From Treponemataceae bacterium (GTDB lineage Bacteria; Spirochaetota; Spirochaetia; Treponematales; Rectinemataceae), in NCBI GenBank assembly GCA_963667725.2, contig CAXXHO010000004.1:1-64000 (forward strand): DNA of 64,000 nucleotides. The letters run 5' to 3'. Position numbers and translations under genes: made by a program. A model generated the notes under the pieces. It was not told the origin of the DNA and did no database searches. It saw nothing but the letters and a program-made list of their open reading frames with translations. Shown here piece after piece: positions 653-34,940 of the stretch (the first letter of the stretch is position 1; every line of letters starts with the position of its first letter).

Positions 653-1624
653 ATGTTCTATAGAAGGCTCGGCTCGGCCGGGATCAAGGTGTCGGTGCTG
701 TCGCTCGGGTCATGGGTGACCTACGGCAACCAGGTCCAGGTCGAGGACTCGGCCGACATGCTCAAGCTGGCCTACGAAGCCGGCGTCAACTTCTTCGACA
801 ACGCCGAGGTCTACTCGGCGGGCGAATCGGAAAAGATCATGGGCGAGGCGCTGCGCAGGCTCAACTGGCGCCGCGGCTCCTACCTCGTCTCCACCAAGCT
901 CTTCTGGGGCATCCACGAAGGCCCGAACGAGAAGAACACCCTGAACCGCAAATACCTGCTGGAGGCTATGGACGGCTCGCTGGAGCGCCTGGGAATGGAC
1001 CACGTCGACCTGGTCTACTGCCACCGCCCCGACCCCGAGACCCCCATGGAGGAGACCGTGCGCGCCATGCACGACATCGTCGCCTCGGGCAAGGCCTTCT
1101 ACTGGGGCACGAGCGAGTGGTCGGCCGAGCAGATCCGCGAGGCCTGGGACATCGCCGACCGGCGCAACCTGCACCGCCCGCAGATGGAGCAGCCCCTCTA
1201 CAACATGATCGCGCGCGCCAAGGTCGAGAAGGAGTTCGCCCGCCTCTACGACGGCATCGGGCTCGGGCTGACCACCTTCAGCCCCCTCGCCTCGGGGCTC
1301 CTCTCAGGCAAGTACAGGAACGGCATCCCCGCGGGCACGCGATTCGCCCTGCCAGGCTACGAATGGCTGCAGAAGCGCTATCTCCACGACGACATCCCCG
1401 CCATCGTGGCGAGGCTGGAACCCATCGCCGCCGAGCTCGGCTGCACGATGAGCCAGCTGGGCATCGCCTGGGTCGCCCGGAACCCGCGCGTCAGCTCGGT
1501 GATTACAGGAGCCTCGCGCCGCGAGCAGCTCGTCGAGAATCTGGGCGCCCTGGAGGTGATCCCCAGGCTCACGCCCGAGGTCCTGGCCCGCATCGACGAG
1601 ACGCTCAAGGGGATAATACAATAA
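653..1624 (+). CDS. Aldo/keto reductase (Kv-beta-like subfamily)
   Basis: [33 protein letters not shown] motifs; AGGAGG RBS upstream. Confidence 0.92.
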
Positions 1625-22818: not shown

Positions 22819-22902
22819 AGTTGAAATACGGGGTCAGACCCCATTTTATTACTTCTAAGCTATCACAGTTGAAAATCGGGGTCAGACCCCGTTCTGTTAC
22901 TT
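22819..22902. repeat. Two tandem palindrome copies (48-bp period)
   Basis: ggggtcagacccc cores at 22830-22842 and 22878-22890, each preceded by agttgaaa. Confidence 0.9.
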
Positions 22903-22907
22903 CATAT

Positions 22908-23948
22908 TTATACGCCCGTGCAGCCTGATAAACAGGTGGGAACAGGCGATTTTTGGCTCTTTTTGGTTAAATATTCATCCAGACAGTCGCGCCAGGGATG
23001 CTGGAAGAGAACCATGGAATGGGCGAGCTTTTGCGCGGAGAGGTGCTGATGAAGGGGCCGAGCCGCCCTGCCGGGGAAAGCCGAGGCGGGCTGGGCAACG
23101 ATCTCGACGGGGCGATCGATCAGCTTGTGGTCCAGGGCGAGGCGGACCACTTCGGCGGCGAACTCGGGCAGGGCGGCACGGCCCCAGTCAGCGTAGTGAT
23201 AGAGGCCGCCGGGAGTCGGGTGATAGCTCGACGGAACGCCAGGGTAGACTTTGCCATCTTCCCCCACCACTTCAGGAGGGATGCGCTCGGCGAGGGTCAT
23301 GTCGAAAACAACGCGGGCGAGAGATTCGCCGAAGGTGGGCGAGACGATTTCGTCGTCGGGGACCTGGACGAGGCCCGAGCCGCCCTTGGCGCCGGCGCGA
23401 AGGATGGACTCGATTAGGGTGTCAGCCTCGGTGGGGGGCGCGAGGGACGCGAGGAGCGCAGGGGGTGCTGGGGGCGCGAGGGGCGCAGGGGGCGCGCCGT
23501 AGAGCCAGCCTGTCCGGAGCACGATAGCCCAGGGATCGGCCGAAAGGATGGCGCGCTCGGTTTCCAGCTGGACGCGGCCGAGGGCGCCAATGGGCGCGGC
23601 GGGAGACTTTTCCGTGTAGTCCCGCGAGGCGAGGGAGCCGGAAAATACGCAGGCAGAGCCGATTGCGATGAAGCGGGCATGCTGTTTCTTGGCGACGCGC
23701 AGCAGCGCAAGCGGCTGAGCGAAAGGCAACGCAAGCGGCTGAACAAGCTCGGGTTCGAGGGGCATGCCGCAATAGAATATCTGGGAGAAAGGACCTTCTC
23801 GAGCGGCAAAGGTATCGAGAACGACAGGATAAGCAGGATCGAAATCGGTGCGGCTTTCCGCCACCGAAAGGCCGGCGGACTGGAAGAAGACTGAGATGGC
23901 CCGGCCTAGGGGCGTATGGGCGCCGGCGATCCAGACGCGCTTGATCAT
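22908..23948 (-). CDS. RmlD-like sugar nucleotide-binding protein with degenerate catalytic motifs
   Basis: VLRTGWLYG, VPDDEIVSPT, GLYHY, RAARP are RmlD-like; GxxGxxG and YxxxK are missing. Confidence 0.75.
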   Translation of the reverse strand: MIKRVWIAGAHTPLGRAISVFFQSAGLSVAESRTDFDPAYPVVLDTFAAREGPFSQIFYCGMPLEPELVQPLALPFAQPLALLRVAKKQHARFIAIGSACVFSGSLASRDYTEKSPAAPIGALGRVQLETERAILSADPWAIVLRTGWLYGAPPAPLAPPAPPALLASLAPPTEADTLIESILRAGAKGGSGLVQVPDDEIVSPTFGESLARVVFDMTLAERIPPEVVGEDGKVYPGVPSSYHPTPGGLYHYADWGRAALPEFAAEVVRLALDHKLIDRPVEIVAQPASAFPGRAARPLHQHLSAQKLAHSMVLFQHPWRDCLDEYLTKKSQKSPVPTCLSGCTGV

Positions 23949-25120
23949 ACGGGGTCAGACCTTAGGTTAAAAATTGGGGTCAGACCCCGGTTTTTAACGG
24001 CGTAGTTTTTCTCTATCCAGGTGCGGTATTCGCCGGAACGGACGTGGGAGCACCATTCCTGATTATCCAGATACCAACGGACCGTGGCGCGAAGGCCGGT
24101 GTCGAAACTGTGGCGGCGGTCCCAGCCGAGCTCGGTCTTGAGCTTGGAGCAGTCGATGGCGTAGCGACGGTCGTGGCCGGGGCGATCCTTGACGTAGGTG
24201 ATGAGGGCTTCGAGCGAGGCTGGGGCGCGGCCGCTTTCCTCCGCGACAAGGGCGATGAGGCGGCGCAGGAGGGTGATGTTCTCCCACTCATTCTCGCCGC
24301 CGATGTTGTAGGTTTCGCCGGCGCGGCCGCGGTTCATGATCGACCAGACCGCCTCGTTGTGGTCCTCGACATAGACCCAGTCGCGAATATTTTTACCGTC
24401 GCCGTAAACGGGGAGCGGCTTGCCTTCCAGCATATTGAGGATCATCAAGGGGATGAGCTTTTCCGGGAACTGGTAGGGGCCGTAGTTATTGGAGCAGTTC
24501 GAGACGGTGACCGGGAGGCCATAGGTATGGAAATAGGCCTTGGCGAGGTGGTCGCTCGAGGCTTTGGACGCCGAATAAGGCGAGCGGGGATCGTAGGGTG
24601 TGGATTCGGTGAAGTAGCCCGAGTCGCCCAGAGAGCCGAAGACCTCGTCCGTGCTGACGTGGTGGAAGAGGACGTCGGCGCGGATGCCGCCGGCTGGATT
24701 AGCCCAGGCTTTGCGGGCGACATCGAGGAGGGTGTAGGTGCCCAGGACGTTGGTGCGGATGAAGGCTTCGGGGCCGAGAATCGAGCGGTCGACGTGGCTT
24801 TCAGCGGCGAAGTGGACGACGGTGTCGATGGCATAGTCGGCGAAGACTTTCTCGACGAGGGCACGATCGGTGATGTCGCCCTTGACGAAGGCGTAGCGAA
24901 GGGCGGGGGCAGAGGCGGCGCCAGGGACGGCAGAGGCTGCGCCGGGGCTGCCGAAGCGCGCGGCGATGTCGGCGAGGCTCTCGGGGTTGCCGGCATAGGT
25001 GAGGGCGTCGAGGTTGATGATGCGGCCGGAAAAATCGGACCGGGCGAAGAGCCAGTGGATGAAGTTCGAGCCGATGAAGCCCGAGCCGCCGGTGACTAGG
25101 ATGGAGGACAATTTTCTCAT
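23945..25120 (-). CDS. rmlB: dTDP-glucose 4,6-dehydratase
   Basis: VTGGSGFIGSN, DALTYAGN, HFAAESHVDRS, HVSTDEV, YSASK, DRPGHDRRYAID. Confidence 0.95.
   Translation of the reverse strand: MRKLSSILVTGGSGFIGSNFIHWLFARSDFSGRIINLDALTYAGNPESLADIAARFGSPGAASAVPGAASAPALRYAFVKGDITDRALVEKVFADYAIDTVVHFAAESHVDRSILGPEAFIRTNVLGTYTLLDVARKAWANPAGGIRADVLFHHVSTDEVFGSLGDSGYFTESTPYDPRSPYSASKASSDHLAKAYFHTYGLPVTVSNCSNNYGPYQFPEKLIPLMILNMLEGKPLPVYGDGKNIRDWVYVEDHNEAVWSIMNRGRAGETYNIGGENEWENITLLRRLIALVAEESGRAPASLEALITYVKDRPGHDRRYAIDCSKLKTELGWDRRHSFDTGLRATVRWYLDNQEWCSHVRSGEYRTWIEKNYAVKNRGLTPIFNLRSDPV
23951..23998. repeat. Partial plus full palindrome copy inside the rmlB 3' end
   Basis: ggggtcagacc (23951-23961), then gttaaaaatt-ggggtcagacccc-ggtttttaac (core 23976-23988). 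Confidence 0.92.
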
Positions 25121-25132
25121 TGGGATTCCTTG

Positions 25133-25171
25133 AAAGTTGAAATTTGGGGTCAGACCCCGATTTTTAACTTT
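25133..25171. repeat. Palindrome copy containing the RAYT stop codon
   Basis: aaagttgaaattt-ggggtcagacccc-gatttttaacttt; core 25146-25158. Confidence 0.95.
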
Positions 25172-25899
25172 ATATGCTTAGAGATGGCAGCTGGAGTGAG
25201 ACCAAGGTAGCGGGCGATCTGCGATTGGCTGTAGCCATCGCGAAGGGCGCTTTTAATGGCTTCATCACGAGCTGCGCGCTTTGCGCCATCGCGCTTACGC
25301 GCTAAATTCGCTACAAGAAAGTGTTGTGAGAGCGATTTGCACATGGCGGGCCTCAAGGCGGCAAGGGCTTCAGATCCGGCTTCAGCTCCGGCAACTTCGG
25401 CCTGCGGCAGAAACTTTGTACTGAAGAATTCCGTAAGTTGGGCGATTTCATCATGACTTAGCGCGGGGTCTTTCGTTGCCGAACTCGCCCAAGGGTATTC
25501 ACCGATCCGCGATGTCATGCCTTTTTTAATGGGATTACGCTCGATATATTTTATAAGAACATTAAGGTACTTTTCATCGTGCACAAACCAGGATTTGAAG
25601 CGGCCCTGCCATAGGGAACCGACGCGCTCATATTTACGGTTGAAATATTGCGTATAGTCCTGATCCAGGCGCTTGAGCGCGAACGAAAGATTCTCAAACC
25701 GCGTTTCCAACAACAAATGATAATGATTCGGCATGAGGCAATAAGCGACGACATCGAAATCGAAGGCCGCTTTCTGCTCATCGACCAAGCTTAAGAATCG
25801 CTGACGATCGGGATCATCCAGAAAGATTAACCTTTTTTCTACGCCCCTATTGATGACATGATAGAGGCCGATCCGATTCGTTCGCGGCAATCGCGACAT
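25150..25899 (-). CDS. RAYT-like HUH/Y1 tyrosine transposase with C-terminal HTH
   Basis: YHVINRG..IF, YCLMPNHYHL (HUH), LWQGRF, KYIERNP (catalytic Tyr), YPWAS; C-terminal GYSQSQIARYLGL HTH. Confidence 0.9.
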   Translation of the reverse strand: MSRLPRTNRIGLYHVINRGVEKRLIFLDDPDRQRFLSLVDEQKAAFDFDVVAYCLMPNHYHLLLETRFENLSFALKRLDQDYTQYFNRKYERVGSLWQGRFKSWFVHDEKYLNVLIKYIERNPIKKGMTSRIGEYPWASSATKDPALSHDEIAQLTEFFSTKFLPQAEVAGAEAGSEALAALRPAMCKSLSQHFLVANLARKRDGAKRAARDEAIKSALRDGYSQSQIARYLGLTPAAISKHIKLKIGV

Positions 25900-25964
25900 G
25901 ACCAGGCACCTCCGCGTACGCTATCTATGCGCGCGAAGGGTTGAGAAGCGATTCAAAGGCCAGG

Positions 25965-26010
25965 GCAAAAAGTTAAAATTTGGGGTCAGACCCCGATTGT
26001 TAACTTTTGC
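25965..26010. repeat. Palindrome copy containing the AbiEii stop codon
   Basis: gcaaaaagttaaaattt-ggggtcagacccc-gattgttaacttttgc; core 25982-25994. Confidence 0.95.
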
Positions 26011-26849
26011 AGGGCATCGGCGAGAATGGCTTGGAGGTAGAACCAATAATCGTTGGAGAGAGCGGTTTCGACAATCGGCCCCGAGGGGAGGAATCGACGC
26101 ATCTCGTTCCGGAAGTCTTCCCGGATCGAAGTACCAGCACTGATACGCTTGATACGCGACGTGAGCAAATCTAAAAACTCTGACGACGTTCTGTGATGAT
26201 CGACTATTTTGCGGGCAATAAAATCGGCATTCAGCGCAACACCCTGGCGCTCGAGCCAGGCGATGTCCCATAGATCGCGATTCTTGATTCTATTCGGCCT
26301 GAAGGCCAAAGCGATGAACTTATCAGCGAGGATTTCCTTCCGGCTCTGCGCGCGAAGTATAAGTCCCGCGGTTCCCATATCGACACCGTATTGATTGCGG
26401 AGCATCATAGGCCGCGCATCGTAACTGGGAATGGCACAAATATCGATATTGATGTGCTGAGCTTTCAGGTCTTTGCGCTCCGGCCGCGTCTGGATTTTGA
26501 CTTTCCAGGTATCGACATTTCCGGTTTCCCTGACCGGTTCCGATACATCGACCGGCAATCCGTACTTCTCCTGAAGGCCATTTACCAGCGCTTTGGCCAA
26601 TTCCGCGAGCTGGGAGGCATTGAAGTCGGCCCCGCCCGTAAGATCGAGGTCTTCACTGAGCCGCTCCGAACCGTAACACGCCCTGAGGCAGGTGCCTCCC
26701 ATAAAGGTCAGGTGGACCAGCAGCCCCGCATCGCTCATCAATCGAAGGATGTCGTGATGAAGCAGCTCTTTTTCGACCACGGGACGAAGCACCGCGAGTT
26801 CGGGACTATTGCGGATCGCTACGTCGACGAAGGCGTCAAAGAGACTCAT
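25986..26849 (-). CDS. abiEii: AbiEii nucleotidyltransferase toxin (type IV TA)
   Basis: EKELLH, FMGGTCLR.CYGSERLSEDLD, ADK..A, RDLWD; likely start ATG 26849. Confidence 0.9.
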   Translation of the reverse strand: MSLFDAFVDVAIRNSPELAVLRPVVEKELLHHDILRLMSDAGLLVHLTFMGGTCLRACYGSERLSEDLDLTGGADFNASQLAELAKALVNGLQEKYGLPVDVSEPVRETGNVDTWKVKIQTRPERKDLKAQHINIDICAIPSYDARPMMLRNQYGVDMGTAGLILRAQSRKEILADKFIALAFRPNRIKNRDLWDIAWLERQGVALNADFIARKIVDHHRTSSEFLDLLTSRIKRISAGTSIREDFRNEMRRFLPSGPIVETALSNDYWFYLQAILADALQKLTIGV

Positions 26850-27408
26850 TACGCGCCTTTTCACAATTTGGGGTCAGACCCCGAATTTTAACCAGATCCA
26901 TGGAACGTTTGGCCGAGCGCATATCGGCGAGCGCAAGGGCCGTGGACGCGCGCCAAAGCCGACATGGGCCGTCCCAGGTGAGTTCGGGAGCGAGCCGGTC
27001 GGGAGTCTTGTTCGTGTGGATGAATTCGATCGTGCCGAAACCCTCGCATTCGATGCGCCCGGATCGCCCGGAACTCATCAGCGTGATCCAGGAAAACGGT
27101 ATTTGAGAAATGATGCCGGCATCGGAGAGCACCGTTTCCAGGCTCAGATAATTGAAACACTCGGCGCGCAGGCGAGCCGCGGCATGGAAGAGCACTTTAT
27201 CACGCGGGTAATCCACCTTTTCATAGAGATAGAGATTCCTGCAAAGACGCCTCAGGGATCCTGCTTTCGTTGCCCTGGAAACGAGGGTCTTGAAGGTATC
27301 ATAGGACGACTCGGGCAGAAGCGCATGGAGATCCCGCAGCGAGAAAAGGTAGCGCTCGCGGCCGGCGAGCCGCGCAAGCGTCTCTGCAAAGATTCTGGCT
27401 GGCTGCAT
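26836..27408 (-). CDS. abiEi: AbiEi antitoxin (type IV TA)
   Basis: YLSLETVLSDAGIISQIP, GTIEFIH motifs; directly upstream of AbiEii. Confidence 0.85.
   Translation of the reverse strand: MQPARIFAETLARLAGRERYLFSLRDLHALLPESSYDTFKTLVSRATKAGSLRRLCRNLYLYEKVDYPRDKVLFHAAARLRAECFNYLSLETVLSDAGIISQIPFSWITLMSSGRSGRIECEGFGTIEFIHTNKTPDRLAPELTWDGPCRLWRASTALALADMRSAKRSMDLVKIRGLTPNCEKARNESL
26859..26892. repeat. Palindrome copy between antitoxin and toxin
   Basis: tttcacaattt-ggggtcagacccc-gaattttaac; core 26870-26882. Confidence 0.92.
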
Positions 27409-27440
27409 TTCCGCTCCAATCGACTGCCGATAGGCGGCAA

Positions 27441-27457
27441 GTTACACTAAGTGTAAC
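27441..27457. promoter_or_regulatory. Probable AbiE operator
   Basis: gttacact-a-agtgtaac inverted repeat upstream of abiEi. Confidence 0.5.
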
Positions 27458-27480
27458 CTAATGTCGATCAAAATGCAAGA

Positions 27481-27503
27481 AAGTTAAAAATTGGGGTCAG
27501 ACC
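27481..27503. repeat. Left half of palindrome copy split by IS110
   Basis: aagttaaaaattggggtcagacc; right half ccccgagttttaactt at 28894-28909. Confidence 0.9.
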
Positions 27504-27519
27504 TCTATGAGAATCCCCG

Positions 27520-28620
27520 TCAAGCGATTTTTTGAGAAAATAGAATTCTCTCAAATTTCCGTTTCTTGATCGAGAATGTTCCTTCCTGAAGGAACCAGTT
27601 CGGCTCCTTGTTCTTCAGGATGTAGAATATCTGCCTGATCGTCCGGCCTACTACGGCCGCACGAATCTTGTTCTTGGACTTGCCCACGGCATGCTTCGTG
27701 TAACGGAGCAGGTTCGGGTTTCCGTCGACCAGGTGGGCGACGCTCTGCAGGAGGATCTCGAAGGCCATTTTTCGCCCAGCTTTGTTGAGCCTGCCGATAT
27801 GGATCGTGTTGTTTGACGCATCGACGCGTGGAGCCGCCCGGAGATAGCTCACCAGGTTCTTGCTCGTATGGAAACGGTCGATAGTGATGATATCCGCCAT
27901 AATGCAGACGGCACCAAACACGCTGATTCCGCTGACCCCTATCAGCAGGCCTACTTGTTCACTGTAGCGGATGACTCCTATCGATTCGATCATCGAGCGC
28001 AACTGAGCCTTGAACGCGTCCAGTTCCTCATACCGATGCTTTTCCTGGCGGGCGATTATCCCAACTTCAGGTGGCAGTCGTGGGTGTTCCAGGTAGCGCT
28101 CCAAACGTTCAATGAGGAAGCCTTTGTCAACCTGCACGAGCCACTGGCGAAACAATGCGTAGAGATTGTTCTTGAGGGCTGTCATGTCGGCGTTCACGCG
28201 TTGGTATTGGCTAATGAGCATCCGTAGCCGTTGCGTGTCCTCGTCGGCAACCGTGACTTCAGGAAAGCCGTCGTTGGGATCGTTGTTCTCAAGATGCTGC
28301 TTCAGACAATCAGCCAGCTTCTTCGCATCGATGCTGTCCGTCTTCTTCGCTGTCATGAAGATCTGCGGCATGCTTAAAGGATTCACGACGAAGGCCCGAG
28401 CGCCTGCCGCAACAATCATTCGTGCCAGCGTATGCGACCCTGAGCCAGCCTCCACGCAGACGGCGCAACCCGGGTGCAGCGATCCGATGAAGTGTGTTTC
28501 CATCTGCTCCATCGGGTACTGGCTTTTCCTTCGCTCTACTTCCCCTTTCTCGCCGATAATGATCCGGTGCACCGTGACTTGCGTGGAATGGAGATCAACA
28601 CCGATAAATTCCTTGTCCAT
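27520..28620 (-). CDS. IS110-family DEDD recombinase/transposase
   Basis: IGVDLHS, CVEAG, KTDSIDA RuvC-like DEDD; GVSGIS..A..I.DI..IDRF and PRVDAS C-terminal domain. Confidence 0.92.
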   Translation of the reverse strand: MDKEFIGVDLHSTQVTVHRIIIGEKGEVERRKSQYPMEQMETHFIGSLHPGCAVCVEAGSGSHTLARMIVAAGARAFVVNPLSMPQIFMTAKKTDSIDAKKLADCLKQHLENNDPNDGFPEVTVADEDTQRLRMLISQYQRVNADMTALKNNLYALFRQWLVQVDKGFLIERLERYLEHPRLPPEVGIIARQEKHRYEELDAFKAQLRSMIESIGVIRYSEQVGLLIGVSGISVFGAVCIMADIITIDRFHTSKNLVSYLRAAPRVDASNNTIHIGRLNKAGRKMAFEILLQSVAHLVDGNPNLLRYTKHAVGKSKNKIRAAVVGRTIRQIFYILKNKEPNWFLQEGTFSIKKRKFERILFSQKIA

Positions 28621-28654
28621 CGATCCTCCTTCCCTAAAGGTGGTGGTTTCGACA

Positions 28655-28800
28655 GAAATGGATCGGGCGAATCCCCAGTCCTCTATTCGGGTTTCCGTGC
28701 TTAACAGCGCGGCCCCATTAGATCGTCCGGTGAAGGCTGGCTAATCCCCGAACGGGCTTACGTTCGCGCGTATCCCAGTCTGACCCCCAGCCTTCATCTT
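28655..28800 (-). ncRNA. Putative bridge/seek RNA in the IS non-coding end
   Basis: Stem tgaaggctgg/ccagccttca encloses GGGGUCAGAC and UUCGGGG (both strands of the target); AUAGAGG matches the donor junction. Confidence 0.65.
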
Positions 28801-28864
28801 TTATCCGTCGATTCCGATTTCCTTATGATACCTCCACCGGGCAATACCGCAAGTCAGCGAATCT

Positions 28865-29311
28865 TCACTGGCTTTCGATTGTTCTCATGATATCCCCGAG
28901 TTTTAACTTGGAAGGATCCATAAGGGAGAGGTCACGGAAATATTCGCGGTAGTAACCGCGGTCGCGAGCCAGGAGACGATCGGCATTCAAACGCGCGTGG
29001 GCAGCGATTAGAAAATCAGGCAGAATGCGTCGGGACTGGCCGCGGTTTTTCAGGTACGAAGCGTAGATCGAGCCTGCGAGCGTGGCGCTCTCAAGGGAGG
29101 AAGGCAGGAAGTCTAGGCCCACATCGCCCAGGAAGGCCGCGAGTTGCTGGTCGGAAGCCAACGCTGGCCTCAGTTCGGCGACAACCGATTCGCAGACAAC
29201 CAGCCTGCCCGAAGCTCGGGCTTCAGCTAACGCAGCTTCCGAATTCGCTGCGTGGCGCGGATCATCAGTGAGAATATCGAGAAGCACCGATGTGTCGACT
29301 GCGGTTGTCAT
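28865..29311 (-). CDS. vapC: VapC PIN-domain toxin (C-terminus altered by the IS)
   Basis: TAVDTSVLLD, VVAEL, LPDFLIAAHA, LLARDRGYY; start ATG 29311. Confidence 0.88.
   Translation of the reverse strand: MTTAVDTSVLLDILTDDPRHAANSEAALAEARASGRLVVCESVVAELRPALASDQQLAAFLGDVGLDFLPSSLESATLAGSIYASYLKNRGQSRRILPDFLIAAHARLNADRLLARDRGYYREYFRDLSLMDPSKLKLGDIMRTIESQ
28894..28909. repeat. Right half of the IS-split palindrome
   Basis: ccccgagttttaactt. Confidence 0.9.
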
Positions 29312-29532
29312 CCGCGAACCTCGTCCAAATACGCATCGACATCGGAGATGCCCCCAGGAAGATGCCCTTTGCCCCGCCATGTTCTCAGCGCGTCCTGAGG
29401 TTCTTTCTTGGTTCCGATGATTTTACCCTGTACCAACTCGAATTCGATGATCGTACCAGGACGTATACCCAGCTTGGTGCGGATAGTCTTGGGCAGGGTA
29501 ATTTGGCCTCGTTCAGATACGATGGTTTTCAT
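29308..29532 (-). CDS. AbrB/MazE-type antitoxin
   Basis: VSERGQITLPKTIRTKLGIRPG; ATGA overlap with vapC. Confidence 0.88.
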   Translation of the reverse strand: MKTIVSERGQITLPKTIRTKLGIRPGTIIEFELVQGKIIGTKKEPQDALRTWRGKGHLPGGISDVDAYLDEVRG

Positions 29533-29625
29533 ACTTTTAAGGTACGTATTCATACTTTAATTGTCAAGGCCAGCATCAGCACGCTGGCGCAGGGCACCGG
29601 GTACCGCGTGCCGCAGCCAGGGACT

Positions 29626-29655
29626 AAAAGTTAACAAATGGGGTCAGACCCCCTA
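29626..29655. repeat. Palindrome copy abutting the stop codon of the dehydratase
   Basis: aaaagttaacaaat-ggggtcagacccc-cta; core 29640-29652. Confidence 0.9.
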
Positions 29656-30843
29656 CATTTTGCTATCGAGGAATTTGCCGGTTTCTTTGTGGGCGAACTC
29701 GGGGATGGTGGCGTTGAAGAGATCGATGAGGTCGGCGCGCGTCCAGGTGCCACGAGCACGCATGGACGCGATCGAGGACTCGAAATGCTCAAGAGCAGCG
29801 GCGTTGTAGGTTGGAGCGTTCTTGATCACGCCGATCGATTCGAATCTTTGCATATCGAGCGTTTCGATATCGGTATAGAACTCTTCAAAGTCCTTTTCAC
29901 CCGTGGTGTCGCTGGCGAAGAAGTAGACCGGCCAGCGATGACATGCTTTAAGCTCAGAGACGCGGGCACGGGCTTCCTCTTCGGTGGCGCACTCGACGGG
30001 CTCGTAGCCGCGCGCCTTCAGGTAGCGCACCGCTATCTCGGAGAAGGTGATGAGATTGGCGCCAGCATCCAGCTTGGGGAAGAAGAGATCGCGGTTTTCC
30101 CCGAGGAGGGCGGACATGAGGCAGAGCTCGCCGGACTCCTTGGGCGTGACGAAATAGCGCCGGACATCGTTGGGCGCCGCGAGCGGCTGCTCCTTCTCCA
30201 TGCGCCGGTTGAAGCCATAGAGGAGACTGCCATCCGAAAAGGCCACGTTCGCGAAGCGCGCCGTGGACACCGACAGCTCGAGGCTCCGGCGCATCAGGAA
30301 ATACTCCATGATGCGCTTGGAGGCGCCCATCATGTTGACCGGGTTGGCTGCCTTGTCGGTGGAGACGCAGAAATACTTTTTCGCTCCCTTGGCGGCGGCC
30401 TGTCGCATGGTCCTGTCGGTGTTGAAGACATTGACATCCACCATGCGCATGAGCGTCCATGGATCCTTCTCCGAGCGCACATGCTTGAGGGCCGAGAGGT
30501 TGAGGACATAGTCGTAGCCCTGCCCCGAGGCCATGAAGGCGTCGAAGATATCGCTTCCCGCGTCGATGGCGAAGGTGGCGAACTCGCCAGCAGTGTAGCC
30601 AAGGGAGGAACGCAGATCACGCACCAGCTCGACCATGTTGTTCTCGCTGATATCCACCACATGGAGCAGCTTGGGATTGCGCCGGAATATTTCGCGCGTG
30701 ACCGCCTGGCCGATCGACCCCGCGCCGCCGATGACGAGGAAGCGTGATGCCGCTACTAGACGGGACAGATCGCTTTCGCGGGAATCGAGGTCGGCGGTGA
30801 AGAGTTCGGAATCCCGGCCAATATTAGTAAGTAATTTATCCAT
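29653..30843 (-). CDS. UDP-GlcNAc 4,6-dehydratase, soluble (LgaA-like)
   Basis: GGAGSIG, LSALKHVRSE, VSTDKAANP, GASK, ARFANVAFSDGS, GEK. Confidence 0.88.
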   Translation of the reverse strand: MDKLLTNIGRDSELFTADLDSRESDLSRLVAASRFLVIGGAGSIGQAVTREIFRRNPKLLHVVDISENNMVELVRDLRSSLGYTAGEFATFAIDAGSDIFDAFMASGQGYDYVLNLSALKHVRSEKDPWTLMRMVDVNVFNTDRTMRQAAAKGAKKYFCVSTDKAANPVNMMGASKRIMEYFLMRRSLELSVSTARFANVAFSDGSLLYGFNRRMEKEQPLAAPNDVRRYFVTPKESGELCLMSALLGENRDLFFPKLDAGANLITFSEIAVRYLKARGYEPVECATEEEARARVSELKACHRWPVYFFASDTTGEKDFEEFYTDIETLDMQRFESIGVIKNAPTYNAAALEHFESSIASMRARGTWTRADLIDLFNATIPEFAHKETGKFLDSKM

Positions 30844-30888
30844 TAATACTCCAAAACATTTCACAACTAAATAGTGAATTTTTAATAT

Positions 30889-31560
30889 TTAATCCTCATC
30901 AAGCTTCAACATTTCAGGAGGAGTGGGCATGTCTTTGAACCACCTCCGCCATAGAGTTGTGCGCGGGCAGACCAACGCCCACATAGTAAGAAAAATTACT
31001 TTAAAGTAATTTCCAATTGTATAATGATTGAACCACCAAAGCTCAAGTTCACCTTTGAAAGGAGCTATCACCATATCATGATTATATTCCCTATCCCCTC
31101 CAATTCTATCAAGAACACCCTCCTCATCCCGAAAAACTAGCGAAGCAATGCCTGTCAAGCCTGGTGTCATCCTCAATATTATTTCTCTTGTCTTCTCTGG
31201 ATAATACGCTAGATGCTGCACGACAATAGGCCGTGGCCCTACAACACTCATCTGGCCAATGAAAATATTAAGAAGTTGAGGTAATTCATTAATCTTTGTT
31301 TTTCGTAAAAAATGTCCCATTGGTAATACTCTAGGATCTCTTGATTGCGTTATAAAACCGCCTGGTAAATTTGGGCTATTTTTAAGCATCGTTGCAAATT
31401 TGTATACCTTAAATTTTACTCCGCCTTTTCCAACGCGAGTCTGCGAGTAAAAAATATAATGCTCTCCTGTAAGCTTTAGGCCTATCATGATTGGAATCAT
31501 AAAAGGAAATAAAATAACTATTGCAATACCAGAAAAAAGTATATCAAAAATACGTATCAT
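30889..31560 (-). CDS. Initiating sugar transferase (monotopic phosphoglycosyl transferase)
   Basis: RIFDI, FKVYKFATM, DPRV..G.FLRKTKINELPQL.NI..G.MS.VGPRP, PGLTG. Confidence 0.92.
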   Translation of the reverse strand: MIRIFDILFSGIAIVILFPFMIPIMIGLKLTGEHYIFYSQTRVGKGGVKFKVYKFATMLKNSPNLPGGFITQSRDPRVLPMGHFLRKTKINELPQLLNIFIGQMSVVGPRPIVVQHLAYYPEKTREIILRMTPGLTGIASLVFRDEEGVLDRIGGDREYNHDMVIAPFKGELELWWFNHYTIGNYFKVIFLTMWALVCPRTTLWRRWFKDMPTPPEMLKLDED

Positions 31561-33234
31561 AATAATTACTTCCTATTCTATAGTTTTTCATTATCCTTTG
31601 ATTCCTGATCAAAATAAAAGCTTTTCAATAATATTTGGCAACCAGATTTAATTTTTTCTTAATCAAGAACATTAATATATACTAATAAACCTTCAATTAT
31701 TTTCACCTTGTTCGGAATTTAGGTTTCAAATGATCTATTATTGAATATTTCTGATTTCGTCGATGAGATATCGAATTCGATATTTTCTTAAGTAGGGGTT
31801 CCTGAAGAACCCGCTTTTCAATCTTTCAGGCCGCACTTAACAGCCACATTGGTATAAAACTTAGCCGTTCTGCCATATCAATAATCGTATCAATAAGCGA
31901 CACAAAAAAGGCTTTCGCCTTTCTCCTCGCCACCACCATGAGGTTCATCACCAGGAATATCATCATAATTGACGTCTCGCTCGTCTCTTTGAGTTTTGTC
32001 CCAATTCTATCGAGCGTATAACGTCGCTTCCCTTCTCCAAACTTGCCCTCTACTGCAATTCTTGTACTCTCGTCTTCTCGCTCAATTCTTTTTTGCTCTC
32101 GTATTCTTTCTTTGTTCTTGCCGTTGTCCTTGAATGGCCTTCCCAATTTAGGCCCCGACAATCGTATCCCGTATTCTTGGCAGTACTGCAGATTCTCCCG
32201 CGTCCTATAGATCTTATCGGCGCATACAGCTTCTGGATATCTCCCATAGCGCTGCTTATAGCTTTCTATTTGCCCTTTCAGATCTTTGCATTCGTTGTAG
32301 GAATCCCACGAGAGCCTATAGACTTCCGCCATTCCATCAACAAGGCTTAAGGAAAGCTTCGCTCCAAACTCATACATCCCTCGGGCCTTCCCTCTCGCTA
32401 TAGGACGCACCCAAGGCTTGCTTATGCTTAAGATCCTTCCTTCTATCGACCAGGTGTCGCTGCGGTACAATTCTCTTTGCTGCCGTACCAATTCTCCGAT
32501 CACCCACAGATCCTGCCGCTGCTTTCTCGAAAGCAACGTTATTCCGACGTTGTCCTTGTATTCATTGATCAATCGCAGGTTCCGCTCAACATACTGGATC
32601 TGCGTTTTCAACGCCCTTCTGATTGTGTTCACTCTCGGCTTTCTATTCCGTATGAAGGTCAGAAACTCTTTTCTCGCCTTCTTCCTATACGTTCTTGGCT
32701 TCTCCCATCCTTCCGGCATTTCATTCTGGAGCGTATCAATGATACTTTCAGTCTTCCTTCTCGCTTCATCCAGCAAAGTCACATCATGGGGGAATCTCAT
32801 ATCTTCGGGAGCGCAGGTGGCATCAACGATCAATGTCCCTTTATTCTCCGGTTTCTTTGGCTCTCCGTCTCCAGAACTAGAACCGCTATTTTCGTCATCA
32901 TGGTGTTCATCGTCGGCTTTGCTTTTCTCGATGATCAACACATTCACTTCTTTCAGGATATCCGCCGACAGTCTCTTTCTGAAATGCACCATCATGCTCG
33001 GATCGAAAGGTATCTCATATTTGTAGCCTTCATATCCCAAGAAGTACTGGAGGTAGGGGCTCTCCCGAATATCCTCTACCAGCTCTTCATCGGAAAGATT
33101 CTTCTTTTCTTTTATTATGAGAGCGCCTAACGCGACTCTCACCGGTATCGCCGGCCTTCCATTATTGGCGACGAACAGCTTTGAATATTTCTCTTCGACA
33201 TCGTTCCAAGGTATCAGGCTTGCTAGGATTACCC

Positions 33235-34940
33235 CCTAATTTCCCGCAGAATTATAGCTAGGAATTGAATAAATCTATAAGATATATGCGAATAGACATT
33301 GACGTGACGGGAAAGCATAGCTACAATTACAGCTATGAAAGCAGGATTGCGCTAATGCCCTATCGCCTACATCATCTCAACAAGAAGACGGGCGTGACCT
33401 ATGTCTACGAATCGGTTTCCCGTTGGGACAAAGAAAAGCAGCAGGCACGCAGCACGCAAGTCTGCATAGGAAAGATTGATCCAGAAACTGGAACCTTCAT
33501 TCCATCAAAGCGCATAACGCAGGGAACTCTCCAAGAAGCAGAAGCTGCCGGCACGGCAACCGCGACGATCGTGGGGCCTTCGCTGATTCTCGATGAAATG
33601 TCCCGACGGCTGGGAATCGCAAGGCTTTTAAAAGTGGCATTCCCCGAGTGTTCAGCCCAAATTCTCACCATGGCCTATTACCTTGCCTGCCAAGGAGGTC
33701 CGTTAAGCCAAAGCGAATCCTGGACCAAGACCCATGAGCATCCCGCAATAAAACCGCTTACAAGCCAGAGGGTCAGCGAGATTCTTGGGTCCATATCGAC
33801 AGGAGCGAAACAGTCGTTTCTGTCGTCGTGGATGGATAAGATTCTCGAGGATGAGTATCTCTGCTATGATACCACGAGCATTTCATCCTACAGCGCATTC
33901 AACGAATACATCCGCTGGGGCCACAACCGCGACAGGGAGAAGCTTCCCCAGCTTAATTTGGCCATGCTGTTCGGACAGAAGAGCAAACTGCCTGCTTACT
34001 ACCACAGGGTTCCCGGCAATATTACTGACGTGCAGACCGTCCATAATCTTCTGGCGACCTTCAAGAAATTGGACATTAAAAACCTGCACTATGTACTCGA
34101 TAAAGGATTCTACAGCAAGAAGAACGTCGATGAAATGCTGGAACGGAAGGATCATTTCACGCTGTCGGTGCCCTTGAATAATCTATGGATTCAGCAGGCC
34201 ATTGATGAGATTTACGATACGATTCAGGGGCCCGAACGCTACAGGATGATCGACGATGAGGTGCTGTATGTACACTCGACGCTCCATCCTTGGGGAGAAG
34301 ATCGGCGACGCTGTTATCTGCACCTGTACTACAACGCAGAGATGAAAGCCCATGCGGTCGATCGGTTCAATCGGGAACTCATAGCCTACAAGGAAGAGCT
34401 GGAGTCGGGGAAACCGAAGGCCGAAAACAAGGAACAGTATGATGCCTTTTTCATCATCACAACGACGCCGAAGCGGGGGATGAAGGTTTCCTACAACAAC
34501 GAAGCGGTCGATCACTATATAAAACGCTACGCGGGGTTCCAGGCAATTTTCACGACACGCTTTAAGGATCCTGTTGAAGCGCTCCAAGTATATCGCGACA
34601 AGGATATCGTTGAGAAATGCTTCGATGACCTAAAGAACAGCCTTGATATGAAACGTCTTCGCATGCACACCATTGAAACCGTTGACGGCAGGCTCTTCGT
34701 GCAATTCATTGCCCTTATTTTCACGAGCGCCCTGCGAAGAGAAATGCGGAAGTCGAAGCTCATTGAAAAGTATACCGTTCGAGAACTGCTGCTCGAAATG
34801 GATCCACTTACCAAGATTCGGTATGCGGGAAAGTATGGTCAGATTCTCACTGAGATTACAAAGCCGCAGCGAGAGATCTTGGAGCTCTTAAGCATTGAGT
34901 CGCCGGTTGTCGCCTAGCTACAATTTGCCGGGAATTCAGG
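33235..34940 (+). mobile_element. IS1634-family element
   Basis: 28-bp imperfect IRs cctaatttcccgcagaattatagctagg / cctagctacaatttgccgggaattcagg; 6-bp TSD TTACCC. Confidence 0.9.
33355..34917 (+). CDS. IS1634 transposase
   Basis: YDTTSISSY, GNITD, LDKGFYS, YRDKDIVEKCFDDLK motifs. Confidence 0.9.
   Translation: MPYRLHHLNKKTGVTYVYESVSRWDKEKQQARSTQVCIGKIDPETGTFIPSKRITQGTLQEAEAAGTATATIVGPSLILDEMSRRLGIARLLKVAFPECSAQILTMAYYLACQGGPLSQSESWTKTHEHPAIKPLTSQRVSEILGSISTGAKQSFLSSWMDKILEDEYLCYDTTSISSYSAFNEYIRWGHNRDREKLPQLNLAMLFGQKSKLPAYYHRVPGNITDVQTVHNLLATFKKLDIKNLHYVLDKGFYSKKNVDEMLERKDHFTLSVPLNNLWIQQAIDEIYDTIQGPERYRMIDDEVLYVHSTLHPWGEDRRRCYLHLYYNAEMKAHAVDRFNRELIAYKEELESGKPKAENKEQYDAFFIITTTPKRGMKVSYNNEAVDHYIKRYAGFQAIFTTRFKDPVEALQVYRDKDIVEKCFDDLKNSLDMKRLRMHTIETVDGRLFVQFIALIFTSALRREMRKSKLIEKYTVRELLLEMDPLTKIRYAGKYGQILTEITKPQREILELLSIESPVVA

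Follow-up and report, generated by a model that had tools for sequence, protein, structure and literature searches.

An IS1111-type insertion sequence with a predicted two-loop bridge RNA upstream of its recombinase gene, inserted in a palindromic repeat of a Treponemataceae bacterium

The first 64,000 nucleotides of contig CAXXHO010000004.1 of a Treponemataceae bacterium (assembly GCA_963667725.2), referred to here as the window, contain an insertion element whose recombinase gene lies on the minus strand, between the halves of a palindrome. The element, its flanks, and its ends comprise the following features.

27504 to 28895, minus strand: insertion sequence, including one copy of the 2-bp core; its excision restores the palindrome, and it is single-copy by blastn and tblastn
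27520 to 28620, minus strand: IS110-family recombinase, 366 aa (NF033542, 155 bits against a cut-off of 140; PF01548 and PF02371)
27481 to 27503, no strand: half of the target palindrome with the core; right flank in the transposase direction
28896 to 28909, no strand: remaining half of the palindrome; left flank in the transposase direction
28882 to 28888, minus strand: left subterminal inverted repeat, offset by 7 nt from the end, core included
27507 to 27513, minus strand: right subterminal inverted repeat, offset by 3 nt
27518 to 27523, minus strand: -35 hexamer TTGACG of the junction promoter, which is formed only when the ends are joined
28887 to 28892, minus strand: -10 hexamer TATCAT of the junction promoter

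An earlier note on this DNA, made from the sequence alone, had placed the element exactly within the palindrome, with CC at both junctions. Both points held: removal of 27504-28895 leaves a complete palindrome with AT-rich arms, and CC is found at 27502-27503 and 28894-28895. The core reads GG on the transposase strand, with its second copy at 27502-27503, and there is no target duplication beyond this short core, a trait of the IS110 superfamily. The element is intact and occurs once in the 4.2-Mb genome, where blastn, tblastn, and a covariance model found neither further copies nor solo RNAs. Non-coding sequence amounts to 273 nt upstream of the transposase gene and 16 nt downstream. Rfam gave no match up to an E value of 1 in window positions 24000-32000, and neither a relative nor the junction motif was found in viral contigs. 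Two unrelated DDE transposase genes (window 31826-33142 and 33265-34917) lie 3 to 6 kb away in the same polysaccharide locus.

The recombinase combines an N-terminal DEDD RuvC domain with a C-terminal Tnp domain containing the catalytic serine, the architecture by which the IS110 superfamily is recognized. Residues D9, E57, D95, D98, and S269 are invariant across 26 aligned relatives, as is the pair S269-N270; the GL-P----S(t)G motif typical of the IS1111 group is absent, the serine being followed by asparagine and not by glycine. The predicted structure (pLDDT, 85.7) gave IS621 as its best match. The clade described below has serine-asparagine at residue 270 where IS621 has serine-glycine; in IS621, the glycine after the catalytic serine contacts the third acidic residue.

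The subterminal inverted repeats begin 7 and 3 nt from the ends, exactly the offsets of IS1111 elements. They share 7 exact positions, and 9 of 13 over a longer stretch, a length inside the range of 7 to 17 bp given by PMC11208160 but under the 11 to 13 bp described as usual by PMC11187229. Joining the ends brings TTGACG to a 17-nt spacer from TATCAT, a predicted sigma-70 promoter on the transposase strand with 10 of 12 consensus matches, and all 33 junctions built in silico carried 8 to 11 of the 12. A scan of the integrated element returned one weak promoter-like site, against 1.3 expected, and no terminator. No circle junction or empty site was present among the assembled contigs of three sequencing runs, and a fourth run, of raw reads, yielded no reads mapping to the element. 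The contigs of the RNA run belong to relatives; one, of 232 nt, covers 28725-28898 and enters a foreign flank, and its strand is not readable.

The non-coding end upstream of the recombinase gene contains two predicted loops with the following segments.

28731 to 28796, minus strand: target-binding loop, with closing stem 28796-28787/28740-28731 and an inner hairpin from UGGG (28777-28774) to CCCG (28756-28753)
28778 to 28787, minus strand: 5' target guide, a complement of the right flank (transposase-sense strand) and the second core base
28746 to 28752, minus strand: 3' target guide, a complement of the left flank (antisense strand) and the core
28744 to 28745, minus strand: target-loop handshake dinucleotide AU, which covaries with bases 1 and 2 of the element's left end
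28720 to 28724, minus strand: 5' donor guide GAUCU, complementary at 4 of 5 positions to the 5-nt left-end extension
28680 to 28686, minus strand: 3' donor guide AUAGAGG, matching the right end and the core
28678 to 28679, minus strand: donor-loop handshake dinucleotide AC, which covaries in relatives with the two target bases immediately to the right of the core

The two loops are alike, each running from a 5' guide through UGGG, a hairpin, and CCCG to a 3' guide and a handshake pair, and the guide-UGGG-hairpin-CCCG-guide build is common to all 36 relatives that could be parsed. The 10-bp stem at 28787-28796/28731-28740 and the two target matches that had been read from the sequence, GGGGUCAGAC at 28787-28778 and UUCGGGG at 28752-28746 on the transposase strand, were confirmed. 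The donor match first reported as AUAGAGGA stands as AUAGAGG (28686-28680), but its last A (28679) belongs to the handshake dinucleotide, which tracks the target in relatives. A second donor guide, called not convincing in the earlier note, does exist: GAUCU at 28724-28720 tracks its cognate DNA in relatives. At most 10 consecutive nucleotides of the 22-nt target are matched exactly in the non-coding end, and 16 of 2,000 dinucleotide shuffles produced a match at least as long.

Over 29 sequences, 86.7% of the cells were paired, and 12 of 22 pairs had changed on both sides. The structure score was 0.290, against 0.145 for shuffled and at most 0.131 for slid controls, with 14 of the scored pairs taken from RNAalifold on the same alignment and 8 from the window stem, a choice that favors the score. 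The opposite strand folds better, as had been suspected (z = -3.42 for the plus strand and -1.93 for the transposase strand), and when no constraint is applied, the predicted fold has the guides pairing with one another. The U-G pairs that close the inner hairpins are conserved (26 of 29 and 29 of 29) and would become C-A on the opposite strand. Since these pairs are valid only on the transposase strand, they point, together with the junction promoter, to a predicted RNA on that strand. An additional hairpin (28845-28879) precedes the target loop on its 5' side. It can form on either strand, is freely variable in the relatives, and is a possible counterpart of the 5' stem-loop of the IS621 RNA.

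Guides and flanks were then compared across relatives. Of 133 loci examined, 60 matched the protein at an E value of ≤1e-20 and 36 of these were parsed; the remaining 24 comprised 10 duplicates, 12 loci without an upstream end, 1 that was disrupted, and 1 without the scaffold. One representative was used per target class, giving 18 to 21 rows depending on the test, and each guide was scored against its own flank and those of the others. The 5' target guide matched the complement of the right flank at 5.83 of 8 positions in cognate pairs and 2.07 in non-cognate pairs (n = 18), the 3' target guide matched the left flank at 4.4 of 5 positions versus 1.18 (n = 20), and the 3' donor guide tracked the variable core base in 18 of 18 rows. 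For the 5' donor guide, in a register chosen by scanning five shifts, the match to the left-end extension was 3.75 of 5 versus 2.66 (n = 20); the four alternative registers were at background. The handshake dinucleotides were related crosswise: that of the target loop agreed with the donor in 38 of 42 comparisons and with the target in 7 of 38, that of the donor loop agreed with the target in 26 of 38 and with the donor in 8 of 38, and the low value in each case was background. None of 100,000 permutations reached the cognate value for any of the six segments, a figure that is not a strict probability because the relatives share ancestry. The reverse assignment, in IS110 guide order, was near background, with a weak signal for one guide (2.35 versus 1.74; 2722/100,000 permutations) and 82,396/100,000 permutations for the other.

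Because the anchors had first been set by hand (for L020 and L016 at the left end and for L015 at the right end, among others), the comparison was repeated on columns of a flank-blind alignment of 17 rows, with L020 left out. All six RNA segments held (0 to 3 of 100,000 permutations). The values were 5.18 versus 2.06 for the 5' target guide and 4.41 versus 1.18 for the 3' target guide (n = 17 for both), 3.88 versus 2.66 for the 5' donor guide, 17 of 17 for the core base read by the 3' donor guide, and 3/100,000 permutations for the target-loop handshake. In the closest retargeted pair, L001 and L007, each of the three guide differences has a matching difference in the flank. The 5' target guide fits poorly in L131, L055, L060, and L076 (2, 3, 4, and 4 of 8), and in L016, L073, and L076 the second core base is not the same on the left as on the right. 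A bridge RNA is recognized by a target loop whose two guides cross the core on opposite strands, a donor loop with two guides, and crosswise handshake dinucleotides; all three are found here, the 5' donor guide being short and imperfect. The covariation of guides with flanks, together with the abundance of the target repeat (below), supports the original suggestion of an RNA-programmed IS110/IS1111 element aimed at a repeat family.

By guide order and end geometry, the element is of the IS1111 type. The complement of the top strand precedes that of the bottom strand, as in IS1111 elements, and the traits of the IS110 group (IS621 and ISEc21), a bottom-strand complement that comes first and subterminal repeats of only 2 to 3 bp, are not seen. 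Two usual IS1111 features are missing, namely, the RNA position, given by a long non-coding region downstream of the transposase gene, and the SG motif; ISWpi14 lacks both too. A few IS1111 elements with upstream regions exist, for example, ISMtsp17 (PMC11187229); ISPa11 was considered as another but, according to the same paper, does not have its RNA upstream. We conclude from these sequence features that the element is an IS1111-type bridge-RNA element within the IS110 superfamily, which narrows the IS110/IS1111 membership first proposed to an IS1111 type with an upstream RNA.

About 117 protein clusters match the profile at an E value of 1e-30. In a quick tree of 107 rows, 33 form one clade (SH-aLRT, 100), with the RNA upstream in 29 and 4 not scorable. 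In 14 more distant loci, a model built from the clade detected related RNAs that lie downstream of the gene (87 sources; E values, 2e-6 to 0.09); by eye these have the same polarity, and the target loop could be parsed in 20 of 29 such loci, using a pattern that already assumes some of the result. The trees hold ISEc11, IS5708, ISAtu7, and ISWpi14 from the IS1111 side and no IS110-group reference, and their deep forks are weak. ISWpi14 is represented by L174, whose protein reads as identical to the ISWpi14 entry, labelled IS1111, in the source data of PMC11187229; it joins the clade with weak support (SH-aLRT, 84). By eye, ISWpi14 resembles the window element in its long upstream non-coding end, a -35 hexamer in the right end, the SN motif, and a donor guide that matches the right end in the same polarity, but it differs in protein sequence (25% identity), host phylum, and target. 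No description of its guides was found in the available part of PMC11187229. Supplementary Table 1 of PMC11208160 includes spirochaete proteins that look clade-like by eye and have no ISfinder name.

The IS1111 elements described with seekRNAs (ISEc11, ISPa11, ISKpn4, and IS4321; PMC11187229) share with the window element the subterminal repeats 7 and 3 nt in, the junction promoter, the top-strand-first guide order, and the use of repeats, or of the termini of other mobile elements, as targets. Unlike in those elements, the RNA here is upstream, the repeats are short, SN replaces S/T-G, and the protein has 366 aa, compared with the typical 330 to 350; identity to the ISEc11 protein is about 22%. 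With IS621 and ISCro4 (PMC11208160, PMC11208158, and PMC13626964), the element shares the upstream RNA, two simple internal loops, a repeat-family target, and the fold (TM score to IS621, 0.62), and the scaffold order of IS621, guide-TGGG-hairpin-guide-handshake (PMC11208160 supplementary file 7), is the order found here. In contrast to both, the guide polarity is mirrored, the core is xG on the transposase strand, and the subterminal repeats are longer; protein identity to IS621 is 17%.

We put the probability that this IS1111-type member of the IS110 superfamily moves by bridge-RNA-guided recombination at roughly 0.88. The element would leave as a circle, the joined ends of which would form a sigma-70 promoter driving the left end and the transposase gene. 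The left end would yield the two-loop RNA, whose structure is indicated by covariation and whose expression is proposed; covariation shows that its first loop reads about 14 bp of target across the 2-bp core and its second the joined ends. Strands would be exchanged by a recombinase tetramer with composite DEDD/S269 sites, as modeled on IS621, and the target guides of the sub-lineage would be set to a TIRYT-type palindrome, an intergenic multi-copy site. Under the handshake rule of PMC11208158 and PMC13626964, the element would have one handshake pair before the exchange and three after it, as in wild-type IS621, and such a rise would favor insertion. As the guides mirror the polarity of IS621, the transposase-antisense strand should exchange first.

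A short RNA with the target loop only (∼28730-28800) might instead suffice; the protein would then use the subterminal repeats to recognize the ends, and the donor loop would be dispensable or left over. The 82-nt seekRNA of ISEc11 is sufficient, and more efficient than the long form (PMC11187229), and the window element has IS1111-type subterminal repeats and a weak 5' donor guide; there are also truncated copies with the target loop only, such as L148 in genome G006, which has kept just the left end and that loop. However, the donor loop tracks the core base in every row, the left-end extension, and, via the handshake, two target bases. Because this tracking persists down to 27% protein identity, it argues for selection on the donor loop, and we consider target-only guidance unlikely.

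Eight close copies have both flanks (L001, L002, L003, L007, L015, L049, L051, and X5, the last from a sequencing run). All copies had been expected to sit at the same site. This was true of six, which lie at the core followed by TC(A/T)GACCC, L015 having the alternative central base in guide and site alike; it was not true of the other two, both from genome G061, where the guides have changed and the sites, though different, match them. The two retargeted copies have 93 to 95% identical transposases, and G061 contains only one copy of the palindrome. A second repeat family as the aim of the two retargeted copies was not supported (8 matches versus 7 in the control). X5 is nearly identical to the window element (14 differences), with unrelated outer flanks and a site that matches its guide, and is, by these flanks, an independent insertion at a guide-matching site. 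On the evidence of paired guide and site sequences, the lineage is reprogrammable.

The choice of site could be shared between RNA pairing and the palindrome itself, acting as a hairpin or cruciform or through a bound Y1 protein. The window copy, L003, L008/L010, and L015 lie in palindromes, several known relatives use structured targets (PMC11187229), and the guide of L003 fits its own site at only 7 of 10 positions. Yet the sites of X5, L049, and L051 match the guide without being full palindromes, and those of L002 and L007 are non-palindromic and match their changed guides. Given these sites, the retargeted pair and X5 among them, the site appears to be set by the guide more than by the hairpin, and a contribution from the palindrome seems improbable. 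That the matches are remnants or chance, arising by flank copying or G-rich coincidence under protein-only targeting, is hardly credible: target and guides are G-rich, and DNA-level exchange does occur in a truncated copy (L153 in G006) joined to the right half of its target exactly at the 5' target guide, but the matches fall at fixed scaffold positions in one polarity, with targets that are unrelated and often AT-rich, and crosswise handshake covariation is not expected from flank copying.

The palindrome GGGGTC(A/T)GACCCC has 28 intact copies in the genome, against none for the reversed control, and was found in 27 of the 69 genomes of the family, with five or more copies in 19, in keeping with the prediction of an abundant and conserved site. 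The element occupies 1 of 29 palindrome sites in the genome; two unoccupied sites match the guides at 14 of 14 positions. The copies are clustered and mostly co-oriented, bounding modules of one or two genes, and there are two paralogous arrays, one on the window's contig, C4 (22.8-29.7 kb), and one on C5 (693-706 kb). Around the element, three neighboring features belong to this setting.

25150 to 25899, minus strand: Y1 HUH transposase with a weak C-terminal helix-turn-helix (PF01797, E = 4e-13; helix-turn-helix below the cut-off)
25986 to 27408, minus strand: AbiEi/AbiEii toxin-antitoxin pair, in an adjoining repeat-bounded module
28865 to 29553, minus strand: PIN-domain toxin and MazE-type antitoxin, in an adjoining module

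The arrays (window 22830-29652 and G000:C5:693662-705930) differ in module content; the modules include a Y1 transposase, an AbiE pair, a PIN pair, and sugar enzymes. They are like a cassette array with TIRYT-type repeats as the joints. The end of the PIN ORF overlaps the left end of the element, and the true PIN start probably lies inside the annotated ORF.

The Y1 gene is flanked by two intact repeat copies (25146 and 25982), and its C5 paralogue, 86% identical, is flanked by repeat copies too; this Y1 HUH transposase, which scored 68.5 bits against NF047646, under the cut-off of 80, is likely the source of the target repeat family. TIRYT repeats have the consensus GGGGWSAS (PMC3733652 and PMC6006769), and a TIRYT is recognized by such repeats around a Y1 gene with a C-terminal helix-turn-helix, an arrangement present here with a helix-turn-helix match below the cut-off. 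By sequence, the target repeat agrees with the TIRs that accompany TIRYT-type Y1 transposases. It shares GGGGWSAS and the flanking of such a Y1 gene with TIRYT/TIRtron repeats (PMC3733652; TnpA-REP subclass 2.1, PMC6006769), and some published TIR families are likewise self-complementary and clustered; unlike those, the copies here have AT-rich arms, share one orientation for the most part, and delimit modules of one or two genes. The available parts of PMC3733652 and PMC6006769 contained no mention of IS110/IS1111 insertion into TIRYT repeats.

A broader reading, to which as a whole we give slightly less than even odds, is that the clade is an unnamed IS1111-side lineage in which the RNA has switched ends while polarity was kept, so that the order of the guides would be a matter of descent and not of where the RNA lies. 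The bridge RNA of IS1111-type elements would then have both loops in full, under handshake control that mirrors that of IS621. One branch would have specialized on TIRYT repeats, here bounding shuffled toxin-antitoxin and other modules and perhaps forming the joints in a cassette array driven by Y1, on which the element would ride.

The basic mechanism, and RNA-guided targeting of repeats by the IS110/IS1111 family, are already established; the element adds a full guide map and a target repeat family for which no precedent was found in the literature searched. In the literature and supplements covered, as far as accessible and with subscription papers outside the scope, we found no account of the clade RNA, of handshake pairs in IS1111 polarity, or of TIRYT insertion. 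For IS1111-type elements the two founding papers differ, a short target-only RNA being sufficient in one and donor-binding nucleotides being predicted in the other; the simple loops and many natural targets of the clade supply evidence, one position at a time, for handshake pairs and donor guides with IS1111 polarity. An upstream RNA without the IS110 order also matters for automatic guide prediction, and a clade of candidate bridge recombinases is added, with cores GG, AG, CG, and TG.

Other branches lie in other sites. One (L005, L054, L057-L059, and L062-L066) is in what we take, by eye, to be attC-like ends of integron cassettes, and two others (L020 and L073) are in what is presumably a different REP-like repeat, which suggests that more than one repeat family has served the clade as a target. 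Elements of a distant group whose RNA lies downstream (L101, L096, L104, L110, L120, L125, and their kin) are inserted at GG a few bases before ATG, apparently between the ribosome-binding site and the start codon, and their 5' guide starts with CAU. Finally, a 46-bp miniature element (L150; G050:C6, ∼1500-1550, reverse strand) consists of the two ends only, with GG at both junctions, and sits in a variant palindrome with the same AT-rich arms, which suggests a minimal donor.
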